A stretch of 64,000 bases of DNA from a virus. Positions within the stretch are counted from its first letter, which is position 1. Every line of letters starts with the position of its first letter. The stretch lies in the IMG/VR virus record IMGVR_UViG_3300020731_000012, positions 1 to 64,000 of that record; one strand, given 5' to 3'. The notes under the pieces were generated by a model. It was given only the letters and a program-made list of their open reading frames with translations. It searched no databases and had not been told where the DNA came from. Position numbers and translations under genes: made by a program. Shown one piece after another: positions 33,333-57,085 of the stretch.

Positions 33333-34559
33333 ATGCCATTTTTAGGAAGCATAGGCGGAAGCAACGAAGTCAAAGGGTTTGGAAGTTATCACCCAGGCGT
33401 TGGCCCACAAGATACATCTGGTAGCTCGGCAGCAGGTTCTCTTGGAACTACAACAGTTACCAGCAACACTGCATCAAACTCAGTCAGCGGCACTCGCGCT
33501 ACATTTGATCCGTTTTTTAACGGCAATATTACTTACACCATTAGTTCGGGAGCTTTGCCTCCAGGTTTTTCATTAAACAGTAGTACCGGTACAGTGAGTG
33601 GATCTTATACACCAAGCGGTCTTAATACTGATGCTCAAGTATATACATTTACTGTACGTGCCACTGATAACTCAGGATTCAACAGTTTTACAGATCGTAC
33701 CTACACTGTAACACTATCAGTTCCATGGTTGTATCAACAGATTTTAACAACTGTTTATATGCTTGGCGGTTATCAAAGTTCAAGCCTATGGTCAAACGTA
33801 AATCGTACAACAAATTCAACACAGACTACTGTTAACCTAGGTGACGGTAACGTTGATAACTATCACTACAAGTCAGGTGGCACTAGCTATAACAAGACTT
33901 ATATCTGGAATGGCGGTCCAACAGGATTCAGCTTGCGTACAGAAACTAAAAACGTCTCAGGTAACAACGCAGGCGGTGGTGGCAACAATGGTACAATCTT
34001 TAACCAGCGTTATGCTTGTTATGTAACAGGCGAAGGTACTGGTACGATCAATAAATTCTATTTCTCAAACGAAACACAAGCTAACTTAGGCAATGGTTGG
34101 AACGATCATGCCGCAGGCATCAGCGGACAGTATCGTGGCATGTGGTGGGGTAACTCAGGACAAACTCAGCGTGTCTATTTCCCAACAGATGCTGTTGCTA
34201 ACCTAGGTTATTCAGCTGGCGCACACGGACAACAAAAAGGTCTAATGGCCAAATGGGGTTATGGCTACGGTGGCGGCGAAGGAAGCTATTCAGGTGGCTA
34301 TACATATCGTAAGACCAACATTGAAAGTGAAAGTCAAGCTAGTAACTTTGGTCGCCCAGGTGGTTGGGGCTTTGGTGAAGACAACTATGGTATGGGCCAA
34401 GACTTTGGTTTCCTACTAGGCGAACACGATCCTAGCGGCCAGAATAATCGTTCGTTTACATACTATTATAACTCAGATAGCGGAAGTCAAAACGGCGGAA
34501 CACTTGAACCAAAAGGACACGGCGGCGCCAGTTCTGGTCATTGCGGTTGGAGAGATTAA
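33333..34559 (+). CDS. Putative fibre tip / receptor-binding protein: Ig-like domain plus Kelch-like repeats
   Basis: TYTISSGALPPGFSLNSSTGTVSG (putative Ig/He_PIG-like) followed by ~40-aa Gly-rich repeats (YMLGGY; T..NLG x3). Confidence 0.6.
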   Translation: MPFLGSIGGSNEVKGFGSYHPGVGPQDTSGSSAAGSLGTTTVTSNTASNSVSGTRATFDPFFNGNITYTISSGALPPGFSLNSSTGTVSGSYTPSGLNTDAQVYTFTVRATDNSGFNSFTDRTYTVTLSVPWLYQQILTTVYMLGGYQSSSLWSNVNRTTNSTQTTVNLGDGNVDNYHYKSGGTSYNKTYIWNGGPTGFSLRTETKNVSGNNAGGGGNNGTIFNQRYACYVTGEGTGTINKFYFSNETQANLGNGWNDHAAGISGQYRGMWWGNSGQTQRVYFPTDAVANLGYSAGAHGQQKGLMAKWGYGYGGGEGSYSGGYTYRKTNIESESQASNFGRPGGWGFGEDNYGMGQDFGFLLGEHDPSGQNNRSFTYYYNSDSGSQNGGTLEPKGHGGASSGHCGWRD

Positions 34560-34560
34560 T

Positions 34561-34566
34561 TAAATA
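34561..34566 (+). promoter_or_regulatory. Late promoter TAAATA heading the enzyme island
   Basis: Motif 1 nt after the upstream stop; SD GAGGA before ATG 34594. Confidence 0.62.
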
Positions 34567-34593
34567 TTCAATATTAATTGATCGAGGATACTA

Positions 34594-35514
34594 ATGACTA
34601 ACGAGATTCAAAACTTTTCTGAAAATTTGCATGAAAAATACGCAGACATGGTCACAGCTGACAAGCTGACGCCAACTACACACGCAGATAAATTAGAAGA
34701 AGACAAACAAAGATTAGTTGAAATGGCTCTTAACGCTACGTTCTTAAATCCTAAATTTAAAATGGAACGTTTTGTTCCGTCAGGCCAACTAACTCCTTAT
34801 GCTACAGTACGCCAATGGTTATTAGAACTTAAGAGTATTGAAGAATCATGCGAACGCTATGTTACCATGATGGCCAAATACGAAATTGAATTACCGATGC
34901 TTCAAGCTAAGATTGATCGTGAAGAAGATCCAATTAAAAAAGCAGAAATTCAATTAAAACTATTAGAACAACAATATCAATATGTTTGTGATAAACGTCG
35001 TAAGGCACAGCATTTTATCGAGCGCGAACAATATTGTGATTTGTTAAAAGATTATCTAGCTGGCCCTCACGGTAAAACTCCAGACGGTCGTAGCTGGTTA
35101 GAAGTGTTTGGTAACCTAGATGAAGAAAACGAATGGGAAAAACACTATTGGACTGTTCGTCTAGCTAAACAAGCCGCAATGGATGTAGTTGGTTACGGTA
35201 AAGTTAGTGCCGGTAACATGGATGCTATTACACAACTTGACGGCCAACAACAACAAGAAGCATTGGCACTTACGCATGAAATTGCACTCAGAGTAGAAGC
35301 TATGAGTAGTAGTTTACGTAATCAAGCCCACGGCCACTTGATGCAAACCGATAAAGACTATGCTGGTATTATGCAAGGCCATACTCCGGAAGATCTTAAT
35401 AAAATAGAATTTAATGTCAACAATCTCGTTCCTGTAGAAGAGCGTCATACTACTGATCCGAACGCTGTTGATCAACCTACCGATGAGGAACTTAACGATG
35501 TTTATCGTCCTTGA
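34594..35514 (+). CDS. Hypothetical coiled-coil protein (possible fibre assembly chaperone)
   Basis: Charged alpha-helical 306-aa protein directly after the fibre tip gene. Confidence 0.65.
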   Translation: MTNEIQNFSENLHEKYADMVTADKLTPTTHADKLEEDKQRLVEMALNATFLNPKFKMERFVPSGQLTPYATVRQWLLELKSIEESCERYVTMMAKYEIELPMLQAKIDREEDPIKKAEIQLKLLEQQYQYVCDKRRKAQHFIEREQYCDLLKDYLAGPHGKTPDGRSWLEVFGNLDEENEWEKHYWTVRLAKQAAMDVVGYGKVSAGNMDAITQLDGQQQQEALALTHEIALRVEAMSSSLRNQAHGHLMQTDKDYAGIMQGHTPEDLNKIEFNVNNLVPVEERHTTDPNAVDQPTDEELNDVYRP

Positions 35515-36064
35515 AGCACTACCATTTAATCACCCAGCACTAGATCAAAAAATTGAAATTCTTGATCAGTACAGTTTTGGCCCATACACCTGCGCTTATA
35601 TCGCACCAGAAAATGAATCTAGTGTTGATCTAAGCCAAATAAACTATATTCAAGTTCCTGAGAACATAGCTCGTGCGGCCAAATTTGCTAAAGTTACACA
35701 TGAGCACAAGATTAAAATTGCAGTGGGATCAGAAGTACACGAAGAATTGATCATCCATTCTATGGAAGAGCATGCTGTAAAACCGCAACTTACATACAAG
35801 TTAAGCGATGCGGATCTTGCAGAAGTGGTAGAATTTTGGAAAGCGGTGATGCATCTAGCACTAACTGTCTACTACAAAAATTTAAGTCAAGAAGATCAAG
35901 ATCGTAATGCCGCACTCAAAGCATCTATTGCTAGCGAGATAGATGCCTGCACCGAAGTAATTCAAACACGAGCAATTTTACATAATCGTTTTGGAATTGC
36001 AACTAGCAGTGTGGTGGCAGAAGATCAACAATGGGGCGCGGCAACTGTAAATTTATCTGAATAA
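35498..36064 (+). CDS. Hypothetical protein
   Basis: ATG 35498 preceded by SD GAGG; overlaps the end of the upstream gene. Confidence 0.68.
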   Translation: MFIVLEALPFNHPALDQKIEILDQYSFGPYTCAYIAPENESSVDLSQINYIQVPENIARAAKFAKVTHEHKIKIAVGSEVHEELIIHSMEEHAVKPQLTYKLSDADLAEVVEFWKAVMHLALTVYYKNLSQEDQDRNAALKASIASEIDACTEVIQTRAILHNRFGIATSSVVAEDQQWGAATVNLSE

Positions 36065-36651
36065 TGATAGACGATATCATTGAGTTAGATAATTTTCTGC
36101 CAGTCGACTATGTTGATCGACTTGAAAAACGATTGATGCATCCAAGTTTTCCTTGGGCCCTTACTCTAGATTCAGTATATGGTGCTGACGGCAAAATAGA
36201 AAATGTTGGAGCAGTTGGTTTTTATCATAATATAGTATTCAACAATAATCAACGTTCTGAAGATCTTTCAAAAGTAGAACCGGTACTAATGGGATTAGAA
36301 AAAGCACTAGGTGGTAAACTAGTGATTGATGTTGTAGAGCGTATCAGAGTCGGGCTTTTTACATGTAATGCTGATCCTAGTCCGCATGCCGCACACGTTG
36401 ATGCATATTTCCCCCATTGGACTGCTGTGTATTATGTAAATGACTGTGACGGGGACTTAACAATTTACGAAGAAACTTGGCCTACACTACTGCCTGATCA
36501 AGCCAAATTTAGTCAACTAACAGTTAAGAAAAAAGTTAAACCTGCCAAAGGGAAAATTGTATTATTCCCTGGACAGCACTATCACGCAAGCTCGTATCCT
36601 ACTGTTAGCCCATTACGCATAGCTATCACATTTAATTTCACTTCCAAATAA
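36064..36651 (+). CDS. 2OG-Fe(II) oxygenase
   Basis: H-V-D ... TAVYYVND ... GKIVLFPG..YH ... R.AITFN (HxD...H...R); TAATG coupling. Confidence 0.85.
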   Translation: MIDDIIELDNFLPVDYVDRLEKRLMHPSFPWALTLDSVYGADGKIENVGAVGFYHNIVFNNNQRSEDLSKVEPVLMGLEKALGGKLVIDVVERIRVGLFTCNADPSPHAAHVDAYFPHWTAVYYVNDCDGDLTIYEETWPTLLPDQAKFSQLTVKKKVKPAKGKIVLFPGQHYHASSYPTVSPLRIAITFNFTSK

Positions 36652-36657
36652 TTTCAG

Positions 36658-36663
36658 TAAATA
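36658..36663 (+). promoter_or_regulatory. Late promoter TAAATA (internal to island)
   Basis: Motif in the 38-nt gap before 36690. Confidence 0.55.
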
Positions 36664-36689
36664 TACCTATATAATACTAGGGATAATGC

Positions 36690-37280
36690 ATGTTTACAGA
36701 TTTTATAGGAGTGTTTGATAATTTTTTAACAGCCAAAGAATGCCAAACATTTATTGATTATTTTAATCATATGAAAGAATTAGACTTGGTCTATGACAGA
36801 CAGTCTATGAAAGATGGCAGAGCTCATCACAAAGACGACGAAACTGGCTTTGTCATGCAATTTGACAGTTTGCCTGTAATGAAAGCTAATCCCATAATGA
36901 AAACTTTCTTTGATAAATTTTGGAAAGCCTATGGTGATTATGCAGAAGAATTTAGCATATTACACGACATTGAAAAACATGGTGTTATAAGTGCTCGTTT
37001 ACAGAAAACAGAACCAGGTGGCGGCTATCATGATTGGCATTGCGAAAACGCCGGATTTGATGTCAGTACCCGAGTAACAGTATTTTCCCTGTATCTAAAT
37101 GATGTAGAACACGGAGGCGAAACAGAATTCCTCTATCAAAAACGCAGACTAAGTGCCAAGGCAGGACGACTAGTAATATGGCCAGCGGCATTTACACATA
37201 CCCATCGAGGTAATCCTCCATTGAGTAATGAAAAATATATTTTAACCGGCTGGTTACAATACTTTGGAGAACCTAAATGA
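36690..37280 (+). CDS. 2OG-Fe(II) oxygenase (prolyl-4-hydroxylase-like)
   Basis: GYHDWHCE, YLNDVEHGGETEF, GRLVIWPA.FTHTHRGNPP, KYILTGW. Confidence 0.9.
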   Translation: MFTDFIGVFDNFLTAKECQTFIDYFNHMKELDLVYDRQSMKDGRAHHKDDETGFVMQFDSLPVMKANPIMKTFFDKFWKAYGDYAEEFSILHDIEKHGVISARLQKTEPGGGYHDWHCENAGFDVSTRVTVFSLYLNDVEHGGETEFLYQKRRLSAKAGRLVIWPAAFTHTHRGNPPLSNEKYILTGWLQYFGEPK

Positions 37281-38962
37281 TTAACACAAAACCAAGAAAG
37301 ATTTTCAGCATACCATTAAATCCAAAACTAAATCAACAAGAGTTCACTCACTTTTATGCATGGTTGCAGATTTATAAAGATTGGATTGCTGACATTTATT
37401 TTACTAGCCGCATAGCACCTTTTAAACAAGATGCTATGGGAGATGTTTTTTTAATTGAAGACAATCACTATTCACTAATTGATACTGCTCTTAACATTCA
37501 AAAACATCTAGGTATCCCCGTTAGTGCAACCTTTAATAACATACAAGTTGCACCTACGCAGGCAAACTTAGATACATTTATTGTTAATTTTAAAAAGTTA
37601 TATGATGCTGGTATTAAGATTGCTACAATTCCACATACCCACTGGATGGCAACCGGACAAATCAAAGCGGCATTTCCTGAACTCTACGTTAAAAACACAA
37701 TTTTAAGAGAAGTTACACATGCCCAAGAAGTAGTCAATCTTGCACAAGCAGGATTTGACTACATTAATCTTGACCGTGATTTGATGCGCGATCGTGATCA
37801 ACTGTTAAAAATTAAACGTGCCAAAGAGTATATTAAAGAAACTATGGGCAAAGACATTACTATCAGCCTGCTAGCCAACGAAGGCTGTCTAGGTAATTGT
37901 TCAATGATGGAAGAACATTTCCATTATAACAATATTAGAAATGCCGAATCACCGCAGTATTTCAACGATCCAATTAGTCGTGTTAGCTGTCCCAAGTGGG
38001 AAGTAACTGATAGTTCAGTTCCTCTTAAAACTGCCAACCTAAGTCCGTGGCGAGCTGACTGGGATGAATATCTCGATGAATTAGGAATTGATGTGTTTAA
38101 AATGCACGGCCGTGAGGACAATCAACGCTTGTTAGATACGCTATCTTACATTGAAAAATATGTAGGAGGAGAAGAAATACTTGCTCCAGGATTTATGCAA
38201 TGGGCAGATGAAACAGGTATGACTGGCAAACCTATCGAACTATGGCGTGAAAAAATTAAAAATTGTAAATTTGACTGCTGGGACTGTCATTATTGCGATA
38301 AAGTATACGATCGTAAAAGCGACTTAGACTATAGTCCGTTAGTTAAACATGTAGCTGAGGCTATTCATCAATCAGGTATTCCTAAAATTTGGAATGATAT
38401 TCCGGGGCTAACTAGTCCACGTGTTAAGACACTGTTGAATCATCTAGCTTCTGGTGTTGGTAGTTATTTAGAAATAGGTAGTTACCTTGGAGCAACAGCC
38501 GCGGCAGTACTTGAAAATAATCCGCTGAACGCTACATTTATCGATACCTGGACTGAAAATGTACAAGATAAAAACAATAAACTAAAACTCCCGCCTAACA
38601 GCAGAGCTCAGTTTGAACAAAATATTACTCCGTATGTTGGTAATAGCAATGTTAGAATTATTGAATCAAACATGTTTGATGTTCAAACGGCAGACATGTA
38701 TGAAACAATACAGATGTTTTTCTATGACGGTCCTCATGATTATAAAACAACCTACGATGCAATCAGTTTATACTACAGTACACTGGCCCAAGAAGCAATT
38801 ATCGTCATTGACGATGCCAACTGGAAGGAAACTGTAGATGGCACTGTAGCGGCATTGTACGATGCAGGTGCTCGCATAACCTATAAAAAACTATTGTTAA
38901 ACAGCGAAGAAAATGGAAAAGAGTGGTGGAACGGATTATACGTACTGGTGATTAGAAAATGA
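37277..38962 (+). CDS. Peptidase-U32-family (Fe-S hydroxylase-like) domain fused to class I SAM methyltransferase
   Basis: N-terminal: YINLDRDL.RD, LLANEGCLGNC, VSCPKW, DVFKMHGRE, CKFDCWDCHYC. C-terminal: YLEIGSYLGATA, FFYDGPHDY, IVIDDANW (Methyltransf_24-like). Confidence 0.72.
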   Translation: MINTKPRKIFSIPLNPKLNQQEFTHFYAWLQIYKDWIADIYFTSRIAPFKQDAMGDVFLIEDNHYSLIDTALNIQKHLGIPVSATFNNIQVAPTQANLDTFIVNFKKLYDAGIKIATIPHTHWMATGQIKAAFPELYVKNTILREVTHAQEVVNLAQAGFDYINLDRDLMRDRDQLLKIKRAKEYIKETMGKDITISLLANEGCLGNCSMMEEHFHYNNIRNAESPQYFNDPISRVSCPKWEVTDSSVPLKTANLSPWRADWDEYLDELGIDVFKMHGREDNQRLLDTLSYIEKYVGGEEILAPGFMQWADETGMTGKPIELWREKIKNCKFDCWDCHYCDKVYDRKSDLDYSPLVKHVAEAIHQSGIPKIWNDIPGLTSPRVKTLLNHLASGVGSYLEIGSYLGATAAAVLENNPLNATFIDTWTENVQDKNNKLKLPPNSRAQFEQNITPYVGNSNVRIIESNMFDVQTADMYETIQMFFYDGPHDYKTTYDAISLYYSTLAQEAIIVIDDANWKETVDGTVAALYDAGARITYKKLLLNSEENGKEWWNGLYVLVIRK

Positions 38963-40473
38963 GCATAACAAAAGTTAAAAAAATTATTATATTCGGTGGT
39001 GGTACAAGCGGCTGGCTAACTGCCGCATACATCACTAGAAACTTAAAATTTCCTTGCGAAGTTACACTAATAGAAAGTACAGACATGGGCCCAATTGGTG
39101 TAGGTGAAGGAACGCAACCTGCCACCGCTAGATTCTTATTTGACTGCGGACTTGATCCTAAGTCATGGATGAAGCCAAGTCAAGCGGCTTTTAAATTAGG
39201 TGTGCATTTCAAAGGGTGGACACCTGAAAACTATTTTGTTGACAATGATTTTATTGAAAATACAGTTATTGCTCCGGACTTGTATACTACAGATTATTTT
39301 TTAGGACGTGACAAGAAAGAATTCTTTGATTGGCTGCCAGCTTATCAACTAGCTCTAGCTAATAAAAGTCCTAAACTTGCTGGTATGGACACTAACTACG
39401 CACAAACCGGTTATAGACAATTTGGCGCTGTGCATTTTAACGCCTATGAAATTATCAAAGCAATTAAAGACCTAATTATTGATCGTATCAACTATATTAA
39501 CACTAAAATTGAAGATGTTGAAACAAACGATGACGGGATTACTGCACTAGTAGACGGTGCTGGCAACAAGTATGTTGCCGATCTATATTTAGATTGCAGT
39601 GGCTTTGCATCAATATTGTTAGAAAAGAAACTGGGAATACCATTTACCAGCGTCACTGACATACTACCTTGTGATCGTGCAGTAGTCTTACAGACTCAAT
39701 ATACTGATCCAGAAGCTGAGTGTGTTCCATATACCAGTGCTACTGCTATGAACGCAGGTTGGATGTTTACTATTCCTATCTATACAAGACAAGGAAACGG
39801 TTATGTATACAGTAGTAAATTTATTAGCGATGAAGATGCTGAAAAAGAACTACGTGAGAAAGTAAATGAATTCTCAGCGCCGGCACGTATACTCAATATG
39901 AAGTGTGGAATACACAACCGGGTAGCTTATAAAAATGTCATGGGAGTTGGATTAGCGGCCGGATTCGTTGAGCCATTAGAAGCCACAGGCATTACATTTA
40001 CCACTAAAGCGGTTGAAATGATCACTGAAGGGTTGAATAGAACACATGGCGTTTGGAGCCAACCTCTTAAAAATGAAGTTAACGAAATTTACGATCTCAT
40101 GTTCTGGGAAATCGTAGCCTTTGTATGGGCTCACTATCACTTTAGCACTAAGAATGATACACCGTTTTGGAATAACATACATCAACAGATGCCTGATATG
40201 ATTCCTAAAAAGGTTTTAGACTTTGTAGAAAAGTTTGTACCAAGCCCTAATAGAGATTTCTTTATACATCCAACTAGTAGTTTCCATGTAGGACATTGGT
40301 TCAGTGTACTCAATGCAGGCGGAGTTTATGACGGCCATAAAAAGAAACTGTTTGGAGATGTAGAAAAGTATGCTGAATATTTTACCAACAGCCAAAGTCA
40401 ACGAGTTGCTCTAGTAAAAGAAATGTTCCCTAACCATTATGCATTTTTAAAAGACTGGTATAGTGTTGAGTAA
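38959..40473 (+). CDS. Flavin-dependent tryptophan-halogenase-like enzyme
   Basis: GGGTSGW, IGVGEGT, AFKLGVHF (catalytic Lys), DCSGF, GWMFTIP, GYVYSS, GFVEPLEATGI. Confidence 0.9.
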   Translation: MSITKVKKIIIFGGGTSGWLTAAYITRNLKFPCEVTLIESTDMGPIGVGEGTQPATARFLFDCGLDPKSWMKPSQAAFKLGVHFKGWTPENYFVDNDFIENTVIAPDLYTTDYFLGRDKKEFFDWLPAYQLALANKSPKLAGMDTNYAQTGYRQFGAVHFNAYEIIKAIKDLIIDRINYINTKIEDVETNDDGITALVDGAGNKYVADLYLDCSGFASILLEKKLGIPFTSVTDILPCDRAVVLQTQYTDPEAECVPYTSATAMNAGWMFTIPIYTRQGNGYVYSSKFISDEDAEKELREKVNEFSAPARILNMKCGIHNRVAYKNVMGVGLAAGFVEPLEATGITFTTKAVEMITEGLNRTHGVWSQPLKNEVNEIYDLMFWEIVAFVWAHYHFSTKNDTPFWNNIHQQMPDMIPKKVLDFVEKFVPSPNRDFFIHPTSSFHVGHWFSVLNAGGVYDGHKKKLFGDVEKYAEYFTNSQSQRVALVKEMFPNHYAFLKDWYSVE

Positions 40474-41051
40474 TGACTAGAGAACCACTGTTTAGATCCG
40501 ATATTTTTATACAATCAGATGTAGGCAGTCTTACAGATCGCCAAGCACTTTTAAATCAAATACATACACTAGCGCAATCTAGCCCAACAATGGAATTTAG
40601 CAATCCAGGTTGCTTTAGAATGGACTTTCCTTTAAAAAATATAGGTTGGCTTTCATATGAAATTAGTGTATTATTGCTTGAAGCTGTGATATTCTATAAC
40701 AAGGAGGATCCTGTCTTTAGAGCAATTGAAAAAACACCTAATCCAAATTTAGTAGCTTGGGTCAATATAAACTCGCCAGGTAGTAGGAATACTATGCATA
40801 CCCATAAAGAAGATGATTTTTCCGGAGTATACTATCTACAAGCTACTGATTGCGGAGATCTAAGATTTCCTAATCCTGCGAATCTACTAGGAGATTGCGG
40901 CAAGACTAGCCCGTTTATGCGAGACTTTAGTTTTGCGCCCAAGGATGGTGATTTAGTTATATGGCCAAGTTGGATGGCACACGAAGTGGAACCTAACTTG
41001 TCTAACCGAGACAGAATAAATTTAGCATTTAATATTAGGATTAGAGCATGA
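40473..41051 (+). CDS. 2OG-Fe(II) oxygenase-like (TIGR02466/Oxy_5 type)
   Basis: WVNIN...MHTH..FSGVYYL...GDLVIWPSWMAHEV...RINLAFN. Confidence 0.85.
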   Translation: MTREPLFRSDIFIQSDVGSLTDRQALLNQIHTLAQSSPTMEFSNPGCFRMDFPLKNIGWLSYEISVLLLEAVIFYNKEDPVFRAIEKTPNPNLVAWVNINSPGSRNTMHTHKEDDFSGVYYLQATDCGDLRFPNPANLLGDCGKTSPFMRDFSFAPKDGDLVIWPSWMAHEVEPNLSNRDRINLAFNIRIRA

Positions 41052-41791
41052 GAAAAATAACATTTTTTACAACAATACCGGGAATGGAAGAAGCCTATCC
41101 TATTATAGAAGCTAAGGATTATAAGCCTGACTGGGTAGAAGGTGCTAGGAAGATGTACCTTAGAAAACTAGAACAATCACAAGGAAAACAATTTGTTGAT
41201 GTGTACCGCTGTCCCGGTATTTTTGATCTAATGAGCACAGGCTATATCGTACCAATGCCATGGGACGTTATGATAGAAACTAACGGGGATATGGAAAATT
41301 TCAAATGGACTATTCCTAGCGAGTCTCTAGCAGAAAAGTATGGCGGGCATCTAGTGTCAGGACACATGGCCAATGAAATTGCCGCTCCCTTTCCGCCTCG
41401 TCCGGGATGCTTGCGTAGCATTATTAAATTTAACACTCCGTGGCATATTATTGCACCTCCAGGTGTAAAATTTATGGCGATTCCAATTCCCTATGGAGAT
41501 GATTTTGCGTTTGAACATAACATGGGTATACTAGATCCAAGTTTAAGTACAGAAATAAATCCGCAGGTGTGGTGGAAAGTGCTAAATGATCGATTTTTGC
41601 TTAAAGCTGGCACACCTATTCTACAGTTAATACCAATGACTGATGAAAAATTTAAAATGGAAGTTGTAGTCGGCGACCAGAAAGCTCACAGTTGGTTAAA
41701 GCGTAGAGAATATTTCTTTAGTCTAAGTTTTAATTTCAAACGTAATCTCATGAAAGCCATGTATCTTAAACATTGGTTTGGGATAAAATGA
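41048..41791 (+). CDS. Conserved hypothetical protein (CPG...GY..P; AGTP..Q.IP beta-fold)
   Basis: RCPGIFDLMSTGYIVP, KFNTPWHI..PPG, GILD, KAGTPILQLIP; lacks the oxygenase HxD/H triad; ATGA coupling. Confidence 0.65.
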   Translation: MRKITFFTTIPGMEEAYPIIEAKDYKPDWVEGARKMYLRKLEQSQGKQFVDVYRCPGIFDLMSTGYIVPMPWDVMIETNGDMENFKWTIPSESLAEKYGGHLVSGHMANEIAAPFPPRPGCLRSIIKFNTPWHIIAPPGVKFMAIPIPYGDDFAFEHNMGILDPSLSTEINPQVWWKVLNDRFLLKAGTPILQLIPMTDEKFKMEVVVGDQKAHSWLKRREYFFSLSFNFKRNLMKAMYLKHWFGIK

Positions 41792-43386
41792 TAAAGCCTG
41801 TAGATCGTATCACTGTAGTCGGAGGCGGTAGTGCTGGCTGGATGACTGCGGCTATTTTAATCAAGGCGTTTCCTAATAAACAAATTACAGTCATTGAAAG
41901 TCCTACAGTACCAATCGTAGGTGTCGGTGAAAGCACGATCGCACAGATTAACGATTATCTACAATTTTTAGAAATTGACGAACAAGAGTTTATGGCTTAT
42001 ACAGATGCTAGTTATAAACTCAGTATCAAGTTTACAGACTTTTACGAAAAAGATTCAGGAGGATTTCATTATCCCTTTGGTGAACCTGTACTAGACGATA
42101 CAGTAGATGGCATACAGGATTGGTATTATAAAAAAGCTCTTTATCCAGAGACTCCTGTACAAGATTTTGTACATAGTTACTATCCTACTGGGTATTTGCT
42201 AGATGCCAACAAGTTTAGCACTAACAGTCAAGGATTTTTTCACAAGTTTGATCCTAAATGGCATGCCGCCTACCATTTTGATGCTACAAAATTTGGTGCG
42301 TGGTTACGTGAACACTATTGTATCCCTAAAGGAGTGGTGCATATTTCTAACGAAGTAGTTGACATAGAATCTAATTCTGATGGAATTGAAGGTCTAGTAT
42401 TAGACGGCGGTGAATACATTACCGCAGATTTATTTGTAGATTGCACAGGCTGGAAAAGCATGTTACTTGCAGGTGCTATGCGAGAACCATTTGACAGTTA
42501 CGAAGACATGTTACCTAACAATCGTGCATGGGCTACTCGATTACCTTATCAAAATAAAGAATTAGAATTAGAACCTTATACAAATTGTACTGCTATAGAA
42601 CACGGCTGGGTTTGGAATATACCTCTATGGAGCCGTCTCGGTACTGGATATGTCTATAGCGACAAGTATGTTACACCAGAACAGGCATTGGAAGAATTTA
42701 AACAACATCTAATGAGCGATAAAGTTGCTTGTCCTAAAACAAGAGAACAAGTCGATGTATTAGAATATCGAGATATCTCTATGCGTGTAGGTATACACAA
42801 TCGCACATGGGTAAAGAATGTTGTAGCTATCGGTCTTAGTGCTGGGTTTATAGAACCTTTAGAAAGTAACGGATTATTCACAGTACATGAATTTCTATTT
42901 AAATTGATTAAAACACTAGATCGGCCAGCAGTCAAACAGTGGGATATCGATGTCTACAATGCCAGTTGCCTACAGATTTTTAGAAACTTTGCAGAATTTG
43001 TAGCATTGCACTATGCACTCAGCATACGCAACGATACAAACTATTGGATTGCTAACGGAGATAGAACCTATAGTCCAGGATTACCTAGCTTAAAACCTCA
43101 ACCCTTCCAAGGATTTTATGATCTACAGCATAGGAAAATGTTTTCAGGTATCGCTCCTGTAAGTGCAGGCATTACTAGAATTAGCATTGGTATGAACTAC
43201 ATGATTCTAGATCCTACAGCAATACAGTTAAAACAAAATAGAGATGGGGTTGACTATAAAAAGGTCTATGCTGAAACTTTTAAAATACTTGAAAAGAAAA
43301 AGACCTATTGGAAGGCAGCCACCGATATGGAGCCCACACTCTACGAGTATTTAAAAAATACGATTTACAAACATGAAGCAAGCTAG
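41788..43386 (+). CDS. Flavin-dependent tryptophan-halogenase-like enzyme
   Basis: ATG 41788 (ATGA overlap); GGGSAGW, VGVGEST, SYKLSIKF, DCTGW, GWVWNIPL, GYVYS, GFIEPLESNG. Confidence 0.92.
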   Translation: MIKPVDRITVVGGGSAGWMTAAILIKAFPNKQITVIESPTVPIVGVGESTIAQINDYLQFLEIDEQEFMAYTDASYKLSIKFTDFYEKDSGGFHYPFGEPVLDDTVDGIQDWYYKKALYPETPVQDFVHSYYPTGYLLDANKFSTNSQGFFHKFDPKWHAAYHFDATKFGAWLREHYCIPKGVVHISNEVVDIESNSDGIEGLVLDGGEYITADLFVDCTGWKSMLLAGAMREPFDSYEDMLPNNRAWATRLPYQNKELELEPYTNCTAIEHGWVWNIPLWSRLGTGYVYSDKYVTPEQALEEFKQHLMSDKVACPKTREQVDVLEYRDISMRVGIHNRTWVKNVVAIGLSAGFIEPLESNGLFTVHEFLFKLIKTLDRPAVKQWDIDVYNASCLQIFRNFAEFVALHYALSIRNDTNYWIANGDRTYSPGLPSLKPQPFQGFYDLQHRKMFSGIAPVSAGITRISIGMNYMILDPTAIQLKQNRDGVDYKKVYAETFKILEKKKTYWKAATDMEPTLYEYLKNTIYKHEAS

Positions 43387-43912
43387 ATTTGTTACACCCA
43401 CGTGGCATGGCCGCATTGAATTATCAGATCAAATCATTAAAATGTATAATGAGTGGGTTAAATTTGAACGAGAACTTGACCCCGATGGTGCTGTAGAATC
43501 TACCACACAAAATGGCTGGCAATATATTTTTAAATACGGTGAACCCGAACCTGATTGGCTAGGATTATTACATCCTGAAATTAATAAAATTAAGGAAGAA
43601 ATTAAATTTGCAAGATTAAAAAATATCTGGGCAGTCGAATATGATAACGGCGGATATCAAGATCCACATTTTCATAATGTAGGTATTGCAAAAGTTGTCA
43701 CTACAATTATAAATCTGCAGGGCACCGGCGAAATAATCCTGCAAGAACCTAGACAGTTGGCTATGGCGCAAGGGATCAATTTCGCAGAAACAATTACTTT
43801 AAAACCAGGCGAGTGGATGAGTATGCCTGCATATTTGATTCACAATTCAAAACCTTGTAAAGGTCAGCGTAGTATCTTAGTGATAGATAGTTATGTCAAC
43901 GATCCACTGTAA
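43373..43912 (+). CDS. 2OG-Fe(II) oxygenase-like (HxH type, divergent)
   Basis: WAVEY..GGYQDPHFH ... PAYLIH.S.P...R. Confidence 0.72.
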   Translation: MKQARFVTPTWHGRIELSDQIIKMYNEWVKFERELDPDGAVESTTQNGWQYIFKYGEPEPDWLGLLHPEINKIKEEIKFARLKNIWAVEYDNGGYQDPHFHNVGIAKVVTTIINLQGTGEIILQEPRQLAMAQGINFAETITLKPGEWMSMPAYLIHNSKPCKGQRSILVIDSYVNDPL

Positions 43913-44492
43913 ATTTTTTAATCCCATACCCATAGCTCGAATACAAGTTGAGCAGGATATACTAGTTAAGGCCGATCAACTTAGTAGAGACTTGTTTACA
44001 CGTAGTTCTACTGTAGAAGATTATCCTGTAAACGATTATCTTACTATCCGAGGCGGTGAGCAACGTAGAGTATGGCCATGTGTTGAAGATAGGAATTGGT
44101 TAGTTAATTGGATTGAACAACAGGCTAGAGAATATCAATTAAGTGCAGGCATAGATGCTGAAGACCTAGTGCCTAAAATAGCCAACTGCTGGACTATTAC
44201 TCAACCAGAAAACAGTTATCAAGTAGCTCACACTCATCCTTACGGATCGATTTCTGGTAATTTATATTTAGAAGTTCCTGCATTTAATGACAATAGCGCC
44301 GAAACCGACGGCTGTATAAGTTTTTTATTTGATGCTACTTCAAATCCCAAAGCTTCGAGATTTGTACATGTAACACCTAGTGTAGGAACAATGTTGATAT
44401 TTCCAAGTTGGATACCGCATTTAGTGTATCCTTGGCAAGGCACAGGACAGCGTAGAGTTATTGCTTGGGATTGTCAGCTTTTACCCCAGTAA
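43893..44492 (+). CDS. 2OG-Fe(II) oxygenase-like (TIGR02466/Oxy_5 type)
   Basis: W......YQVAHTH...ISGNLYL...GTMLIFPSWIPHLVYP...RRVIAW. Confidence 0.83.
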   Translation: MSTIHCKFFNPIPIARIQVEQDILVKADQLSRDLFTRSSTVEDYPVNDYLTIRGGEQRRVWPCVEDRNWLVNWIEQQAREYQLSAGIDAEDLVPKIANCWTITQPENSYQVAHTHPYGSISGNLYLEVPAFNDNSAETDGCISFLFDATSNPKASRFVHVTPSVGTMLIFPSWIPHLVYPWQGTGQRRVIAWDCQLLPQ

Positions 44493-45007
44493 AATTTATC
44501 ACTTTCAAGTGTTCCTATAGCAGGTCTTCGATCATATTTCCACTCTGCATAAGATCCGTTAGCATCTACCCAGTGTAAAAATACTTGTGTGCATCCTGTA
44601 CCTTTGTATTCTTCACGCCAGTGAGTAAGTTCTATTCCAGGATATAATACAGCATCGCCTATTCCAAGCAATACCGGATCACGGTCTTGAAAACACAAGG
44701 GCCAACTTTCTCCTCCCACACATAAGCTCATGCTGTATTCGCAGGCGTTACGGTCGGTGTGCAGAGGCATCGTAGCACCTGTATAATATATTCTCGAATA
44801 ACTATAAGTTGGATATAATTCTTTTTGAACTATATTACTAATCTGCGGAGTTAATTTTACAAGTAACTGTTCAGTTTCTAATAACGCATAGGCGCTGAAA
44901 CTTTTTGGTACTAATCGATCTCCAATAGGGCGTTCTCTAGCTCTAATGCTCTTGTCCAATTCTGCACAATCACTTGGACTAATAAGATTTTTTAAAATTT
45001 TCATCAC
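44474..45007 (-). CDS. 2OG-Fe(II) oxygenase
   Basis: YSYSRIY..G..MPLHTDR..CEYS.SL...GDAVLYPG....HWRE...QVFLHWV; start GTG 45007 or ATG 45004. Confidence 0.83.
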   Translation of the reverse strand: MMKILKNLISPSDCAELDKSIRARERPIGDRLVPKSFSAYALLETEQLLVKLTPQISNIVQKELYPTYSYSRIYYTGATMPLHTDRNACEYSMSLCVGGESWPLCFQDRDPVLLGIGDAVLYPGIELTHWREEYKGTGCTQVFLHWVDANGSYAEWKYDRRPAIGTLESDKFYWGKS

Positions 45008-45010
45008 CTG

Positions 45011-45028
45011 TATTTACTTCACTAAATA
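45011..45028. promoter_or_regulatory. Back-to-back divergent late promoters
   Basis: TATTTA (45011-45016, minus-strand TAAATA), 6 nt, then TAAATA (45023-45028); each sits just upstream of a start codon. Confidence 0.7.
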
Positions 45029-45032
45029 TTCC

Positions 45033-45608
45033 ATGATACAAAATGTCTTCTTTACGCCAATATTTGCTCATAATTTTTCGGGTATTGCTTTGAATAAAAT
45101 ACAAGATGAAATTGATAAAGTATTGCCAGATGTTCGTAGTAAAGAAAATGCAAGCCCATGGGGCGATGCAGTAACAACAACATTTAATTTTGAAAAAGTT
45201 AACGATGTAGAAACATACAAACTAGACATCTTTAAAGAGGCAGTGGGGTGGGCTATAAAAGAATACGCTAGAGAAATAAACTATCCAAATCCGATTTTTA
45301 AAATGAGCGAAAGTTGGTTTAACTTTTGTAAAAAAGGCGGCTTTCAGTATGACCACAGCCATCCTCGCAGTCGCATAAGCGGAGTATACTATTACCAGTC
45401 CAATGGTGACGACGGTAAAATACGTTTTCAAAATCCTAATCCTAATATTAATTTTAGTTATTTTCCAGCAGATGGTACTGATATAGATGCAGTAAGTTAT
45501 CGACCTGCTGTAGGTAGACTATTGTTATTCCCTAGTTGGTTATCTCACAGAGTTAATATAAACACAACTGATCATGAAAGAATCAGTATCGCATTTAATT
45601 TGGAGTAA
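45033..45608 (+). CDS. 2OG-Fe(II) oxygenase-like (TIGR02466/Oxy_5 type)
   Basis: ATG 45033, 4 nt after TAAATA; SWFN..KGGFQYDHSH..ISGVYY...GRLLLFPSWLSHRV..RISIAFN. Confidence 0.87.
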   Translation: MIQNVFFTPIFAHNFSGIALNKIQDEIDKVLPDVRSKENASPWGDAVTTTFNFEKVNDVETYKLDIFKEAVGWAIKEYAREINYPNPIFKMSESWFNFCKKGGFQYDHSHPRSRISGVYYYQSNGDDGKIRFQNPNPNINFSYFPADGTDIDAVSYRPAVGRLLLFPSWLSHRVNINTTDHERISIAFNLE

Positions 45609-45610
45609 TT

Positions 45611-46195
45611 ATGCCTGTTGAATATTGGTTTCCTACTCCTGTTTTTGTACGCGATCTCGAAGGAGACGAACTTCAAACTGTACAAGCTGAAATTGAGCAG
45701 GTACTTCCGCAGATTAGATCCAGATCTACACCTGCTATAACCGGAGGTGCAATGCTGACTACCTTCTTTTGGGGTAACGGTAATGCGCACGACATTGCCA
45801 AATATAATCTAATAAATTTAAAACAGGCAATACGTCGAGCTGTGGATGACTATACAGTTGCTATAAATTATAAAGGTCCGCCTTTTCAGTTCGGGGGATC
45901 TTGGTTTAATCTCAGCAGTCGAGGAGGAACACATTTTGATCATGTACATCCTTACACTAGAATAGCAGGAACTTACTATTATCAAACTAATGAAACCGAT
46001 GGTAATTTAAAATTACAGAATCCCAATCCATTGATGCACATGGGTGCGTTTCCAGCAGATGAAAGTCCGCAAGAAAGTTTAAAATTTCCTCCTAAAGCTG
46101 GAAGATTAATACTGTTTCCCTGCTGGTTAACTCACAGGGTAGAAATGAATGAAACTGATCATGAGCGCATTAGTATAGCGTTTAATATAAACTAA
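45611..46195 (+). CDS. 2OG-Fe(II) oxygenase-like (tandem paralogue of 45033..45608)
   Basis: SWFN...HFDHVH..IAGTYYY...QNPNP...GRLILFPCWLTHRV..TDHERISIAFN. Confidence 0.87.
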   Translation: MPVEYWFPTPVFVRDLEGDELQTVQAEIEQVLPQIRSRSTPAITGGAMLTTFFWGNGNAHDIAKYNLINLKQAIRRAVDDYTVAINYKGPPFQFGGSWFNLSSRGGTHFDHVHPYTRIAGTYYYQTNETDGNLKLQNPNPLMHMGAFPADESPQESLKFPPKAGRLILFPCWLTHRVEMNETDHERISIAFNIN

Positions 46196-46701
46196 TGATT
46201 AAATTTATAGAAGATATTACTCTGCTAGAATTAACTGCTAGAAAGTATATGTTGTCTGGCATAGACAACAGTAAACTGGCTAAAGAAGTGCTACAACATA
46301 TAGACGTTAGAGTAAGCCAAGATCCCAATAGCGGTCTTAGCGAAGACAGTCTGTTTGAAATACCAGAAGGCAGTGAAGGATTAAAACTAGTAAATCTAGT
46401 AAATGAAATAGCCGCTGAAAAAGGACTGGTCAATACTAGTCAATGGGGGCAAATACATCGTCCATTAGAAAGTACTAACACTCATCATCATGGAGATAGT
46501 CCATTTGCTTGGACTTACTATGTTCAAATACCCCCAGGTGCAGGCGCATTGACATTTTGGTTTTTAGATAGGTTTAGGCACTCAATCGCACCAGAAGAAG
46601 GATCACTCATAATCTTTCCAGGATGGATGAATCATTCGGTAAGTAAAAATAGAGGCACTGGCACACGAATCAGTGTTGCTGGAAATTTGGAGAAAAAATA
46701 G
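46195..46701 (+). CDS. 2OG-Fe(II) oxygenase-like (HxH type)
   Basis: WGQIH...STNTHHH...WTYYV...GSLIIFPGWMNHSV..N....RISVAGN. Confidence 0.82.
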   Translation: MIKFIEDITLLELTARKYMLSGIDNSKLAKEVLQHIDVRVSQDPNSGLSEDSLFEIPEGSEGLKLVNLVNEIAAEKGLVNTSQWGQIHRPLESTNTHHHGDSPFAWTYYVQIPPGAGALTFWFLDRFRHSIAPEEGSLIIFPGWMNHSVSKNRGTGTRISVAGNLEKK

Positions 46702-47756
46702 TGGAAATTTTTAATTATTTAGATGACGAGATTTATCTTTTTGTCTTAATATCGATCATGGTAGTTAGCGGTATAGCTAAAGAACAAAATCTATTTGCCG
46801 GTACCTATGGATTTTTAAAAAGTAAATTTAAGAGTAACAGATTAGTTATCATGTTGCTGAGTTTCGTATCGGGTATACTGCCAATTGAAGGTCGTGCTAC
46901 AGTGTCAGCAGGTATATTAGATACGGCGACTGGCGTGAACGGTGATAATGCCAGCCGCAAAAAATTAGGTATTATCGATTTCTTAACCACTCATCATTTT
47001 TACATGTGGAGTCCGATTGAAAAACCCGTACTGCTACCTATGGCGGCTTTTGGTATTGGATATGCCGCATGGTTAGGCATGCTGGCGCCATTGATTGCTG
47101 TCAGCTTCCTGTTTATTGTACTGTACTGTTGGTTAGCGGTAGATGAGAACGAAGTAGTGATTGCAGAATGTCCAGAGTCTACAGGATTCTTAGACTTTGC
47201 AAAAAATACACTGCCATTCTTGGCAGCCATTGTGGCCTATATGCTGATGGGCGGCGAAGGTCCCGAAGCAGTATTTCCAGTATTTGGTGCATTACTAGTA
47301 TATTATATACTAATCACTCGATCGTTTGATATTAAAAAGTTAAACAGTTATATTAATTGGACTACAGTGGCTATCGTTGCTGTAGTATTTGCGAGCTCGG
47401 GATATATGCAAGAGCATCGCGCTTGGATTGAAGAAGCTGTTAAGAGCATAGGATTAGATATGCACACATTTAAAGGTGTGTTCTTTATCAGTTTACTAAC
47501 ATTCTTAGCCAGTTTCTCAATGGGCAGTGACGGCAAATTTGCCGCACTGACTGTGCTAATGACAAGTGCCTTTGGTAGGGAATACCTACTTTGGTTCTTT
47601 GCATTAGACTATTGTGGTTACTTGCTGACCCCAATGCACGAATGTGTAATGATTGGTAAGCGTTATTTTGGAACAACTCTTACTACTTACTACACAGCAC
47701 TAATCGGATGGGCTTTATTGCTCGTTTCGGTTGCAGGAGTTTTTACATTCCTGTAA
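46701..47756 (+). CDS. Polytopic inner-membrane protein, DUF401-like (ion-transporter superfamily-like)
   Basis: About 9-10 hydrophobic segments; GILPIEGRATVSAG, HHFYMWSP and LLTPMHECVMIGKRYF recall DUF401 motifs (GLLP.PGGA..SAP; SP.H.CL..T.EYF); GTG start coupled to TAG. Confidence 0.65.
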   Translation: MEIFNYLDDEIYLFVLISIMVVSGIAKEQNLFAGTYGFLKSKFKSNRLVIMLLSFVSGILPIEGRATVSAGILDTATGVNGDNASRKKLGIIDFLTTHHFYMWSPIEKPVLLPMAAFGIGYAAWLGMLAPLIAVSFLFIVLYCWLAVDENEVVIAECPESTGFLDFAKNTLPFLAAIVAYMLMGGEGPEAVFPVFGALLVYYILITRSFDIKKLNSYINWTTVAIVAVVFASSGYMQEHRAWIEEAVKSIGLDMHTFKGVFFISLLTFLASFSMGSDGKFAALTVLMTSAFGREYLLWFFALDYCGYLLTPMHECVMIGKRYFGTTLTTYYTALIGWALLLVSVAGVFTFL

Positions 47757-47792
47757 AATGACAGAGTTACACTTAATTAAGGAGATTTATAA

Positions 47793-48386
47793 GTGAATAA
47801 GATGTTAACATTAATTTTTGCCGCATTATTGAGCGGTACAGCACTAGCTGAAACAGGTATCAGCACTGAGTTTGAACGTGAGCGTGGCACACAAGCCCCA
47901 AACACAATGACAAACACAATCAAGATTGCACCATATGTCAAGTTTGACAACGGTGTTAAAGCCGACATTCAAGTAGGTGCTAGCCGTGATGATGGTTCTG
48001 TTAGCGGTAATAAAAACCCAATTGAGAATACAGCAGAAGCTCGTGTTCAAAAATTGTATGAAGTTTACCCAGGCTTGCACCTAGGTGGACGTTTGGGTCT
48101 AGGTGAAGTATTCAACGGTGTTAATTCTGCTGGTAACACAGTAGACTTTGGCTACTACACAGTAGAACCAAAAGCTGAATACTTTATCACTGACAAATTG
48201 TCTGCGTTAGCTAGTTGGAGATTCCGTGATTCATTTGCAGATAACAACAACTATCTAACACGCACTTGGAAAGCTGGTTTCGGTTATGACGTTACTAAGA
48301 AAGACTTAGTTGAAGTCAAGTACTTCCAAAACCGCGGTGACGAAAAGACTAATGGTGTTGCTCTAGAGTACACACGCGGTTTCTAA
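47793..48386 (+). CDS. Outer-membrane beta-barrel (porin-like) protein
   Basis: Sec signal MNKMLTLIFAALLSGTALA, alternating amphipathic beta strands, C-terminal BAM signal LEYTRGF; SD AAGGAG. Confidence 0.75.
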   Translation: MNKMLTLIFAALLSGTALAETGISTEFERERGTQAPNTMTNTIKIAPYVKFDNGVKADIQVGASRDDGSVSGNKNPIENTAEARVQKLYEVYPGLHLGGRLGLGEVFNGVNSAGNTVDFGYYTVEPKAEYFITDKLSALASWRFRDSFADNNNYLTRTWKAGFGYDVTKKDLVEVKYFQNRGDEKTNGVALEYTRGF

Positions 48387-48403: not shown

Positions 48404-48430
48404 AAAAAAGGACCTTCGGGTCCTTTTTTT
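48404..48430. terminator. Bidirectional rho-independent terminator
   Basis: AAAAAAGGACC-TTCG-GGTCCTTTTTTT between convergent genes. Confidence 0.92.
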
Positions 48431-53664: not shown

Positions 53665-53720
53665 AGCCTTTTTGCGGCCTTTTTATAGGGTTATTACAGC
53701 TACAAATTATCCAAATGCCA

Positions 53721-53726
53721 TAAATA
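53721..53726 (+). promoter_or_regulatory. Late promoter TAAATA for tail sheath
   Basis: Followed by SD GGAG and ATG 53759. Confidence 0.72.
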
Positions 53727-53758
53727 CATTAACAGTATGTCATCATGGAGATAACACA

Positions 53759-56700: not shown

Positions 56701-57085
56701 AGGAACTGGTTTAGTTGCTTACGGTCAATACACTCGTCAGCTAACAGCTAGCAGTTTAGATCGTATCAACGTGGCACGTTTAGTAGTGTATCTACGTCGT
56801 CAGCTAGATTTATTGGCTAAACCATACATCTTTGAACCAAACGATACAATTACACGTAACCAAATTAAACAGGCAGCAGAACAGCTATTGCTAGAACTAG
56901 TAGGTCAACGTGCTATCTATGACTTCTTAGTAGTTTGTGATACAAGTAACAACACACCTGCAAGAATAGATCGCAGTGAGCTATACCTAGATATTGCGAT
57001 TGAACCAGTTAAGGCAGTGGAATTCATTTACATTCCATTGCGTTTGAAAAATACTGGAGCAATTAAAGGCCTAGGCGGCGTATAA
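53759..57085 (+). CDS. g18: Tail sheath protein (T4 gp18-like), enlarged
   Basis: MAQLSSPGVSVTVIDES; YYPW; VPPS; PWFAPAGTRRG; NPV; LDRINVARL; FEPND..TR; IEPVKAVEFIYI. Confidence 0.95.
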   Translation: MAQLSSPGVSVTVIDESFYTPAAAGTVPLFIVASAQNKQNGAGTGTAPGTLKANAGTVYLLTSQKDLSDTFGVPTFYTDSSNNPIHAGEQNEYGLEAAYSFLGVSNRAYVVRADIDLAGLTASATAPTSPPADGTYWLDTTDTKWGVFQWNQNAATTTGGQQFGVQNVTVITDSTLVSGGTPLASYGTIGQYVIVATTTLLKLWFKKPLTSTPAGTWVEVGTSSWAASWPTATGTVASPTLLSGDSIVINGTSITGVTNLAGLNTAINSNSTLTSAGITSAVINNYLVLYSNGTNTNNPTYPGAITISGTTVAKVGLNQGSNLSATSWIYLAPQLQISAHTSVPLFKITDVTASVNGAPTGSLWLKTTTANLGADFIVQKYNAAATAFQAQTVGVYQNGSSANYYLDPTGGGINLPIGTVYAKYNDGEAASSLTNFKLYIRTGVGYTTLVSNIIGTSTFTSGTNTFTLSESYVGQAAMGTPLTVSFTAAGTSADAQALLTAINAAGFTNVQASLNTNNSITIIHNDGGEMRFVDGTNLPISKLFAVGTTANFFSNPAGTANAYVASLWSPTISGASFYTASASAPTAIPANGTYWYDSAVTDVDIMVNNGTSWVGYLNYTQNQAGGSTTDPNGPIVSASQPTTQSGGTALANGDIWISTANLDDFPTIYKYNYLTKQWVLIDNTDHTSENGIIFADARWGTSGATSGTAGSIVALLTSNFVDPDCPSPALYPKGTLLWNLRRSSYNVKKYVSGYINTTLRNTIYNNEVMTSYFADRWVSQAPNDYQGEGQFGRHAQRAVVLSALEALANSNQQIRDTESRVFNLMACPGYPEMIQPLVNLNYDRGLTTFVVGDTPARLTPDATTLSNWGNNVNLAPDNGDVGLVTTDPYLGVYYPWGYTTDLLGNNIVVPPSHMMLRTIALSDNVSYPWFAPAGTRRGGVTNASSTGYVDTATGEFTAVALNTGQRDTLAGVHVNPVTYLTGTGLVAYGQYTRQLTASSLDRINVARLVVYLRRQLDLLAKPYIFEPNDTITRNQIKQAAEQLLLELVGQRAIYDFLVVCDTSNNTPARIDRSELYLDIAIEPVKAVEFIYIPLRLKNTGAIKGLGGV

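Follow-up and report, generated by a model that had tools for sequence, protein, structure and literature searches.

A dioxygenase- and halogenase-rich island next to the fibre genes of an uncultured T4-type phage, and a possible pathway for tailoring aromatic rings

The 64,000-nucleotide (nt) stretch analysed here, positions 1 to 64,000 of IMG/VR record IMGVR_UViG_3300020731_000012 and hereafter called the window, is best explained as belonging to an uncultured marine T4-type myovirus, with the enzyme-rich island at 33,333 to 48,386 as an accessory cargo slot of its fibre/late module. Judging from the sequence, we give about even odds (a probability of roughly 0.5) to the view that this cargo is an accessory pathway that tailors the aromatic ring of a small substrate. 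Gene clusters of this kind have been described before: Iyer, Abhiman, de Souza and Aravind (2010) reported that gp40-gp60 of cyanophage Syn9 comprise ten dioxygenases, two halogenases and a dUTPase-fold protein, and suggested that the cluster hydroxylates and halogenates metabolites derived from amino acids in a stepwise manner (PMC2938197), and Sullivan et al. (2010) found 2-oxoglutarate (2OG) oxygenases, prnA and a "ferrochelatase-domain" gene to be recurrent in cyanophages (PMC3037559).

The cargo slot becomes apparent when related loci are compared. We examined 80 viral contigs carrying a 561-amino-acid (aa) fusion protein encoded in the island (see below), out of at least 1977 homologues, and mapped the window proteins onto the open reading frames (ORFs) of those contigs; cargo counts are based on the 46 complete loci among them. 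The gene order is constant, namely a giant fibre gene, small fibre genes including Ig408, then p306, usually p198, and the fusion, followed by NUDIX, gp15 and gp14 genes on the minus strand, gp13, the deoxynucleoside monophosphate (dNMP) kinase gene and the sheath gene. Ig408 is the last fibre-like gene ahead of the enzymes and stands before p306, often in two copies, in most of the 80 loci, while the far side of the slot is bounded by the NUDIX gene. The span from fusion to NUDIX gene varies from -8 to 9466 bp in the complete loci, and at 9467 bp the window has the largest filling. A halogenase is encoded in 37 of the complete loci, as is halogenase 1, and the remaining nine are without any cargo. 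Since these nine are cargo-free and the content is otherwise highly variable, the halogenase/oxygenase cargo is not part of fibre assembly. Within the cargo, a triad of halogenase 1, the dioxygenase oxC and p247 recurs: oxC comes after halogenase 1 in 32 complete loci, and p247 was found only together with a halogenase (30 loci versus none without), and additional genes for fibre and baseplate-connector proteins come after the triad in many relatives. The first-pass annotation had asked whether the island is always linked to fibre genes, and the synteny check run here found this linkage in all 80 contigs. It extends to Syn9 and Sf-CH11, where it involves a halogenase/dioxygenase cluster, and to Syn33, S-CAM4 and S-H25, where it involves p306 and the fusion.

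Profile searches with Pfam, PHROGs and NCBIfam identified in the island two Trp_halogenase proteins, six dioxygenases above the Pfam gathering cut-off (oxB, oxC, oxE, oxF, oxG and oxH) and three more with weaker evidence. Of the latter, oxA falls just under the cut-off (26.5 against 27) and is related to Syn9 gp51 and gp53, and oxD and the minus-strand gene have family matches from PHROGs alone. The total of nine 2OG-Fe(II) oxygenases given in the first-pass annotation therefore stands as a number, although its composition changes, as eight lie on the plus strand and the ninth is the minus-strand gene, which that annotation had missed. This gene is 35% identical to Syn9 gp54 (E 3e-34), and keeps the H-T-D ... 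H motif; gp54 itself has been placed among the classical 2OG dioxygenases (PMC2938197). In an alignment of the eight plus-strand dioxygenases (A1) both metal-binding histidines are invariant, six proteins have H-x-H instead of H-x-D/E, and an Arg or Lys follows the distal histidine in seven of the eight, the placement of oxD being uncertain. Only oxF and oxG are recent duplicates, and oxA, oxB, oxD and the gp54-like gene are unrelated by sequence. At least six unrelated dioxygenase families thus coexist with a single recent duplication, which is the pattern expected of a multi-step pathway. Profile scans yielded no match to a JmjC or cupin family for any island protein, and hhalign comparisons of p198, p247 and the gp54-like protein with the dioxygenase alignment were not significant. 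Some database names in this group are misleading: phrog_274 is called "DNA endonuclease V" and phrog_2954 "ferrochelatase", whereas the sequences bear dioxygenase metal motifs, and Syn9 neighbours among the gp51/gp53/gp54 dioxygenase families are annotated as "minor coat protein".

The presence of two halogenases was confirmed, both being intact in flavin motif, catalytic lysine and glutamate. Halogenase 1 has a W-x-F-x-I-P variant and is otherwise intact, its catalytic Lys and Glu aligning with those of PyrH, while halogenase 2 has all four of G-x-G-x-x-G, catalytic Lys, W-x-W-x-I-P and Glu. The linked p247 is 30% identical to Syn9 gp43 (E 2e-34). In a wide structural search with its model, the first 22 matches, with Z from 9.8 down to 5.0, were without exception dUTPases or dCTP deaminases, before the score fell to 4.0. 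Cysteine 55 is invariant in the family alignment. By inspection, the consensus contains look-alikes of dUTPase motifs I, III and IV only, with neither the phosphate-binding motif II nor the C-terminal motif V arm seen, and the Pfam dUTPase profile matches one of 34 family members (E 0.078); p247 is probably not a dUTPase.

The fusion protein joins a cysteine-rich triosephosphate isomerase (TIM) barrel to an O-methyltransferase. The AlphaFold2 (AF2) model of the N-terminal domain, with a predicted local distance difference test score (pLDDT) of 93, has as its best fold match the U32 peptidase Mk0906 (5D88), with Z 16.4, a root-mean-square deviation (rmsd) of 3.2 Å and 226 of 247 residues aligned, whereas the next TIM barrels reach Z 13.0 with rmsd above 5 Å. 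In Pfam and PDB sequence searches nothing significant was seen for U32, only one of 54 fusion homologues reached the PF01136 (U32) profile (E 0.033), and the C-terminal motif of TrhP is absent from the fusion. Seven cysteines are invariant, in two groups (204, 208, 238 and 330, 334, 337, 340), and their spacing, C-x3-C ... C plus C-x3-C-x2-C-x2-C, is unlike the four-Cys U32 4Fe-4S signature. The C-terminal domain matches Methyltransf_24 in Pfam (8e-10), and its profile finds YrrM/TrmR as the best relatives in the PDB (5ZW3, 1.6e-5; 3NTV, 2.6e-5), other O-methyltransferases having E-values of 0.1 or worse; the Joint Genome Institute (JGI) annotation of fusion homologues is likewise YrrM. In the methyltransferase-domain alignment D131, D159 and D160 are invariant and, by analogy with cation-dependent O-methyltransferases, may form a metal site. 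Of the earlier label "U32-methyltransferase", the second half is confirmed by a Pfam domain, and the first has support from the fold but not from Pfam. Each of the two domains is found on its own, as a separate protein, too. In two pattern scans covering 185,579 cellular genomes, a method of limited sensitivity, no close relative of the U32-like protein came up.

The U32-like gene also has constant company outside the cargo. It is preceded by p306 in 77 of the 80 viral loci, as well as in Syn33, S-CAM4, S-H25 and Ralstonia phage RP12 (ORF140), and p198 has weak homologues in the same place in 43 loci. A permease gene adjoins or lies near it in RP12, in S-H25, where one gene separates fusion and permease in the same p306/fusion/permease set, and in 12 of the 46 complete loci. 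In RP12 (L085, NC_041911.1, 9338-12059), a jumbo phage from soil with a beta-proteobacterial host, genes for a p306-like protein, a stand-alone U32-like protein and a DUF401 permease stand in a row, and this module adjoins genes for a collagen-repeat protein and a virion structural protein. The RP12 U32-like protein is 40% identical to the window domain (E 7e-77), and as the module is found in RP12 it must be much older and more widely distributed than the marine phage group. The first-pass annotation had spoken of a transporter and a porin. The former is indeed a DUF401 permease, with a Pfam match above the cut-off, but the latter, with 197 aa including its signal peptide, has the size of a small barrel and not that of a general porin of about 16 strands. 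The barrel candidate scores 27.8 bits against an OMP_b-brl cut-off of 28.7 and is present in only five related loci; neither it nor the permease had a PDB match by sequence.

Taken as a pathway, the enzymes would work one after another on a small substrate with an electron-rich aromatic ring, which might be a metabolite derived from an amino acid, a short peptide or a compound resembling a nucleobase. The U32-like domain may hydroxylate the ring, after which the fused domain would O-methylate it, the two halogenases could perform electrophilic halogenation, and the 2OG enzymes might add further hydroxylations, the permease and the small outer-membrane barrel being optional transport parts. An aromatic ring is suggested because all the conserved enzymes have characterised relatives that attack rings, namely the flavin halogenases, the U32 hydroxylases and the YrrM-type O-methyltransferases, and U32 proteins are Fe-S enzymes tied to prephenate-dependent hydroxylation of aromatic rings (PMC10990095). 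We infer a small substrate because of the link to a permease and because the cargo is dispensable and fast-changing; since the U32-like gene is found with a permease in three phage lineages, a small-molecule substrate fits better. The first-pass annotation had offered, as one possibility, a small molecule made late in infection; the small-molecule part of this agrees both with the 2010 proposal and with the reading favoured here, whereas exclusively late timing has been weakened (see below).

Several observations nevertheless weigh against such a pathway. PF01136 did not match the fusion at E <= 10, p306 had no Pfam, PDB or Atlas match and its role is not accounted for, and scans with Pfam, PHROGs and NCBIfam found in the island no gene for a flavin reductase, a precursor peptide, a peptide synthetase or a substrate. 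In addition, the closest relative of the window (L005, 84% identity) is without permease and barrel, and a small-molecule pathway leaves unexplained why the genes are so tightly and so conservedly embedded among fibre genes.

As to timing, the four TAAATA boxes given in the first-pass annotation are all present (Table 1). Of 76 related loci, 56 have a TAAATA box in the 70 nt ahead of p306, against about 2.9 expected, and in 18 of these it reads ATAAATA; this conservation supports late transcription entering the block. Compared with the T4-type late promoter (TATAAATA-like box), the island has the shorter TAAATA core only, and ATAAATA marks structural genes elsewhere: it occurs six times in the window versus 23 expected (about four-fold depleted), always on the plus strand and shortly before structural genes, and never in the island. 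The six positions are 19490, 51855, 53720, 57814, 60111 and 63401; at 57814 and 63401 the motif stops 4 nt ahead of the ATG, which suggests very short or absent leaders. No -35 element was seen in the window gap at 36652-36689. In 22 of 79 relatives, these being ones that lack oxA and oxB, the fusion is directly preceded by a sigma70-type promoter with a score of 10/12 or more (eleven of them score at least 11/12 and two are perfect), and this promoter is of the same type as that before the dNMP kinase gene of the window; such promoters precede the permease in 7 of 20 cases and other genes in 0 to 4 cases. Together the promoters before fusion and permease weaken the earlier claim that the genes are expressed only late. 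In some relatives without oxA and oxB the gap upstream of the fusion holds a palindrome (L039:9930-10000, L043:9930-9997, L028, L058 and L026), for example AAAAGATGCTATAAT, a 5-nt spacer and the reverse complement, whose loop or arms contain the -10 hexamer of the sigma70-type promoter; such a palindrome may serve as an operator, or as a terminator that overlaps a promoter. In the transcriptome papers examined nothing was found on these genes.

Table 1. Features of the island and their support (window coordinates)
Feature	Position	Strand	Evidence
Ig408, 408-aa Ig-domain fibre-type protein	33333..34559	+	Pfam He_PIG 1.7e-10; phrog_1417
Late-type TAAATA box	34561..34566	+	28 nt ahead of p306 start
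p306, helical protein	34594..35514	+	phrog_1409 1e-27
p198, poorly conserved	35468..36064	+	no family match (Pfam, PHROGs)
oxA, H-x-D type	36064..36651	+	2OG-FeII_Oxy_3 1.3e-5; phrog_274 1e-35; motif in alignment A1
Promoter-like gap	36658..36675	+	TAAATA box, then perfect TATAAT
oxB, prolyl-4-hydroxylase-like, H-x-E type	36690..37280	+	2OG-FeII_Oxy_3 1e-10; motif in A1
561-aa fusion	37277..38962	+	U32-like Cys-rich TIM barrel (1-350) and cation-dependent-type O-methyltransferase (360-561)
Halogenase 1, flavin-dependent, PyrH-like	38959..40473	+	Trp_halogenase 1e-94; PyrH 5e-66
oxC, Oxy_5, H-x-H type, triad member	40473..41051	+	2OG-FeII_Oxy_5 1.3e-17
p247, dUTPase-fold, Syn9 gp43 family	41048..41791	+	AF2 pLDDT 95; structural search
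Halogenase 2, flavin-dependent, VirX1-like	41788..43386	+	Trp_halogenase 3e-103; VirX1 (6QGM) 7.7e-100, full length
oxD, divergent, H-x-H type	43373..43912	+	phrog_81 2e-8; Oxy_5 only E 0.07; motif in A1
oxE, Oxy_5	43893..44492	+	2OG-FeII_Oxy_5 4e-17
Minus-strand dioxygenase, 176 aa, Syn9 gp54 family	44474..45004	-	phrog_2954 7e-48
Divergent TAAATA pair	45011..45028	.	boxes at 45011 (-) and 45023 (+); 28-nt gap, minus-strand gene to oxF
oxF, Oxy_5, corrected start	45033..45608	+	2OG-FeII_Oxy_5 4e-24; in-frame ATG at 45033
oxG, Oxy_5, recent tandem duplicate of oxF	45611..46195	+	phmmer 1e-57 to oxF; DNA repeat D1
oxH, Oxy_5	46195..46701	+	2OG-FeII_Oxy_5 6.5e-14
DUF401/TIGR00529-type membrane permease	46701..47756	+	Pfam DUF401 6e-9, over cut-off; phrog_14035 1e-72
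Small outer-membrane beta-barrel candidate	47793..48386	+	197 aa, signal peptide, C-terminal Phe; OMP_b-brl 3.4e-6
Bidirectional intrinsic terminator	48404..48430	.	GGACC-TTCG-GGTCC hairpin, A run and T run either side, between convergent genes

One may consider an alternative in which the fibre proteins of the virion are the targets of hydroxylation, halogenation or methylation, so that late in infection the receptor-binding tips would become more diverse or harder. The embedding of the enzymes among fibre genes in all relatives, with fibre and baseplate-connector genes downstream in many, is what one would expect in that case, and so is the conserved late-type box ahead of p306; moreover, oxA and oxB are of the prolyl-hydroxylase type, and tail-collar/collagen-like proteins have been proposed as substrates of linked bacterial dioxygenases (PMC2938197). 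However, a fifth or so of the complete loci manage without cargo and its content shifts between close relatives, sigma70-type promoters stand ahead of the enzyme block in the relatives counted above, the permease partner suggests a substrate that diffuses, and the characterised relatives of both halogenases work on free small molecules. We found no feature of a fibre-protein substrate, and there are no collagen-like runs in the fibre proteins. Tailoring of fibre proteins, which the first-pass annotation had put forward, thus keeps its argument from linkage, but in view of the dispensable cargo and the missing substrate feature we regard it as unlikely, though marginally less so than the next alternative.

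Slightly less probable again is pyrimidine-C5 chemistry on nucleic acids or nucleotides, in which the fusion would convert uridine first to its 5-hydroxy and then to its 5-methoxy form, like TrhP and TrmR at tRNA position 34, while the halogenase and the dUTPase-fold protein would act as a pair on a uracil-type ring. TrmR methylates 5-hydroxyuridine (ho5U) in tRNA, Bacillus subtilis yrrM shares an operon with two U32 genes, and eukaryotes have hydroxylase-TrmR gene fusions (PMC6599085). Both halves of the fusion have their best matches on this side, the N-terminal domain in a U32 protein by fold and the C-terminal domain in YrrM/TrmR among solved relatives; p247 clearly has the fold of the dUTPase superfamily and never occurs apart from a halogenase, and a NUDIX gene marks the slot boundary. 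The earlier argument against nucleic-acid substrates accordingly carries little weight, since tRNA uridine is what TrhP and TrmR, the characterised proteins most like the fusion, act on. Against this, there is no sequence-level U32 signal and no TrhP C-terminal motif, the TrmR match is modest, p247 is without phosphate-binding motifs II and V, position in a fibre module and a late-type promoter do not suggest nucleotide metabolism, and the link to a permease would go unexplained. In its most specific form, which we consider still more doubtful, the fusion would combine an O2-independent uridine/cytidine C5 hydroxylase with a TrmR-like methyltransferase and place 5-methoxy-pyrimidines in tRNA, or in some other nucleic acid, so that decoding is retuned during late protein synthesis, and together with the linked halogenase/dUTPase-fold pair would form a toolkit carried by thousands of marine phages. 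Finally, the dioxygenases might share no common pathway and instead consume or sense 2-oxoglutarate or repair DNA, roles suggested for the 2OG enzymes of cyanophages by Sullivan et al. (2010) and Weigele et al. (2007) (PMC3037559), their clustering reflecting a permissive insertion hot spot; while the slot clearly is a high-turnover hot spot, this is very improbable given that the halogenase 1/oxC/p247 order is kept in most relatives and the halogenase-gp43 pair in Syn9, that no dioxygenase matches AlkB-type families in profile scans, and that the genes are translationally coupled.

This coupling is visible in the ORF map as start/stop overlaps of 1 nt and 4 nt at 36064, 37277, 38959, 40473, 41048, 46195 and 46701; the one at 41788 is real as well provided that halogenase 2 begins with the in-frame ATG there and not with the TTG at 41773. 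The first-pass annotation had seen a tightly coupled block of about 17 genes, and the overlaps bear out the coupling, but uniform orientation has to be given up: because the 176-aa minus-strand gene sits within it, the block is not one co-oriented operon. The gene start placed at 44946 in that annotation also needs correction to 45033, which leaves the gap that holds the divergent TAAATA boxes. The 3' ends of oxE and the gp54-like gene overlap by 19 nt (44474-44492), an arrangement preserved in L005, L006 and L007; as there is no space for a terminator between them, read-through either way would be antisense to the other gene. The strong terminator expected at 48404 was found, with its hairpin between A and T runs and convergent genes on either side. 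There were no Rfam families between 31 and 53 kb of the window, and no mobile-element repeats flanking the island were found.

Upstream of the island lie two giant fibre proteins (2722 and 4184 aa) and then three small fibre-type genes, and the flanks as a whole are T4-type (major head protein, gp13, gp14, gp15, sheath, tube and dNMP kinase). Megablast returned nothing for the island among 50,697 phage records. At the protein level the island genes are 35-52% identical to Kyanoviridae cyanophage genes, and the terminase is closest, at 54%, to that of PA5oct-type Pseudomonas jumbo phages. The terminase (61800-63401) is nearer to these than to cyanomyoviruses, and the sheath (53672-57085) is unusually long, at 1137 aa. 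Homologues of the fusion occur on contigs of up to 309 kb, and the lineage may therefore be a jumbo T4-type group.

Sequence data have shown halogenase/dioxygenase clusters in marine phages since 2010, and the relatives described here offer several handles on them. The conserved minimal triad of halogenase, oxC and dUTPase-fold protein is co-expressible; the fusion is very widespread and unannotated, with halves that resemble the tRNA-modification pair TrhP and TrmR; and the loci form a natural series, from an empty to a full cargo slot, that suits comparative metabolomics and proteomics. If the substrate were in fact a virion protein or a nucleic acid, this would be a new type of phage modification.

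Among known systems, VirX1, the iodinating flavin halogenase of cyanophage Syn10, which has use in biocatalysis, aligns with halogenase 2 over its full length and with its catalytic motifs kept, although halogenase 2 is only about 36% identical in protein sequence to the Syn9 and Syn10 copies. With the trimeric dUTPase/dCTP deaminase superfamily p247 shares the fold, and it differs in its extra helical C-terminus and its invariant cysteine. In the B. subtilis genes yrrM-yrrN-yrrO (TrmR, TrhP2 and TrhP1) a U32-type cysteine-containing TIM barrel is likewise combined with a YrrM-type O-methyltransferase, with the same hydroxylate-then-methylate logic, whereas the phage version is one fused polypeptide; from the U32 hydroxylases in general (TrhP, RlhA, UbiU/UbiV) it differs in this respect as well as in its cysteine spacing, the lack of a Pfam U32 match and the pairing with p306. 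The closest parallel is the Syn9 cluster itself, where gp41, gp42 (the halogenases) and gp43 come directly after fibre genes and are followed by a run of dioxygenases that includes gp54. Both clusters thus stand behind tail-fibre genes and contain two flavin halogenases, a gp43-type cysteine-bearing dUTPase-fold protein, a gp54-type protein and several unrelated 2OG families. In contrast to Syn9, the window phage is not a member of the Kyanoviridae, one of its dioxygenases lies on the opposite strand, and no counterpart of the JmjC/MINA-type gp49 was detected in its island; conversely, its cluster is joined to the U32-like/methyltransferase fusion, the DUF401 permease and the small barrel, none of which was detected in the Syn9 stretch examined. 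The island is therefore a large, hybrid example of the kind of cluster described in 2010.

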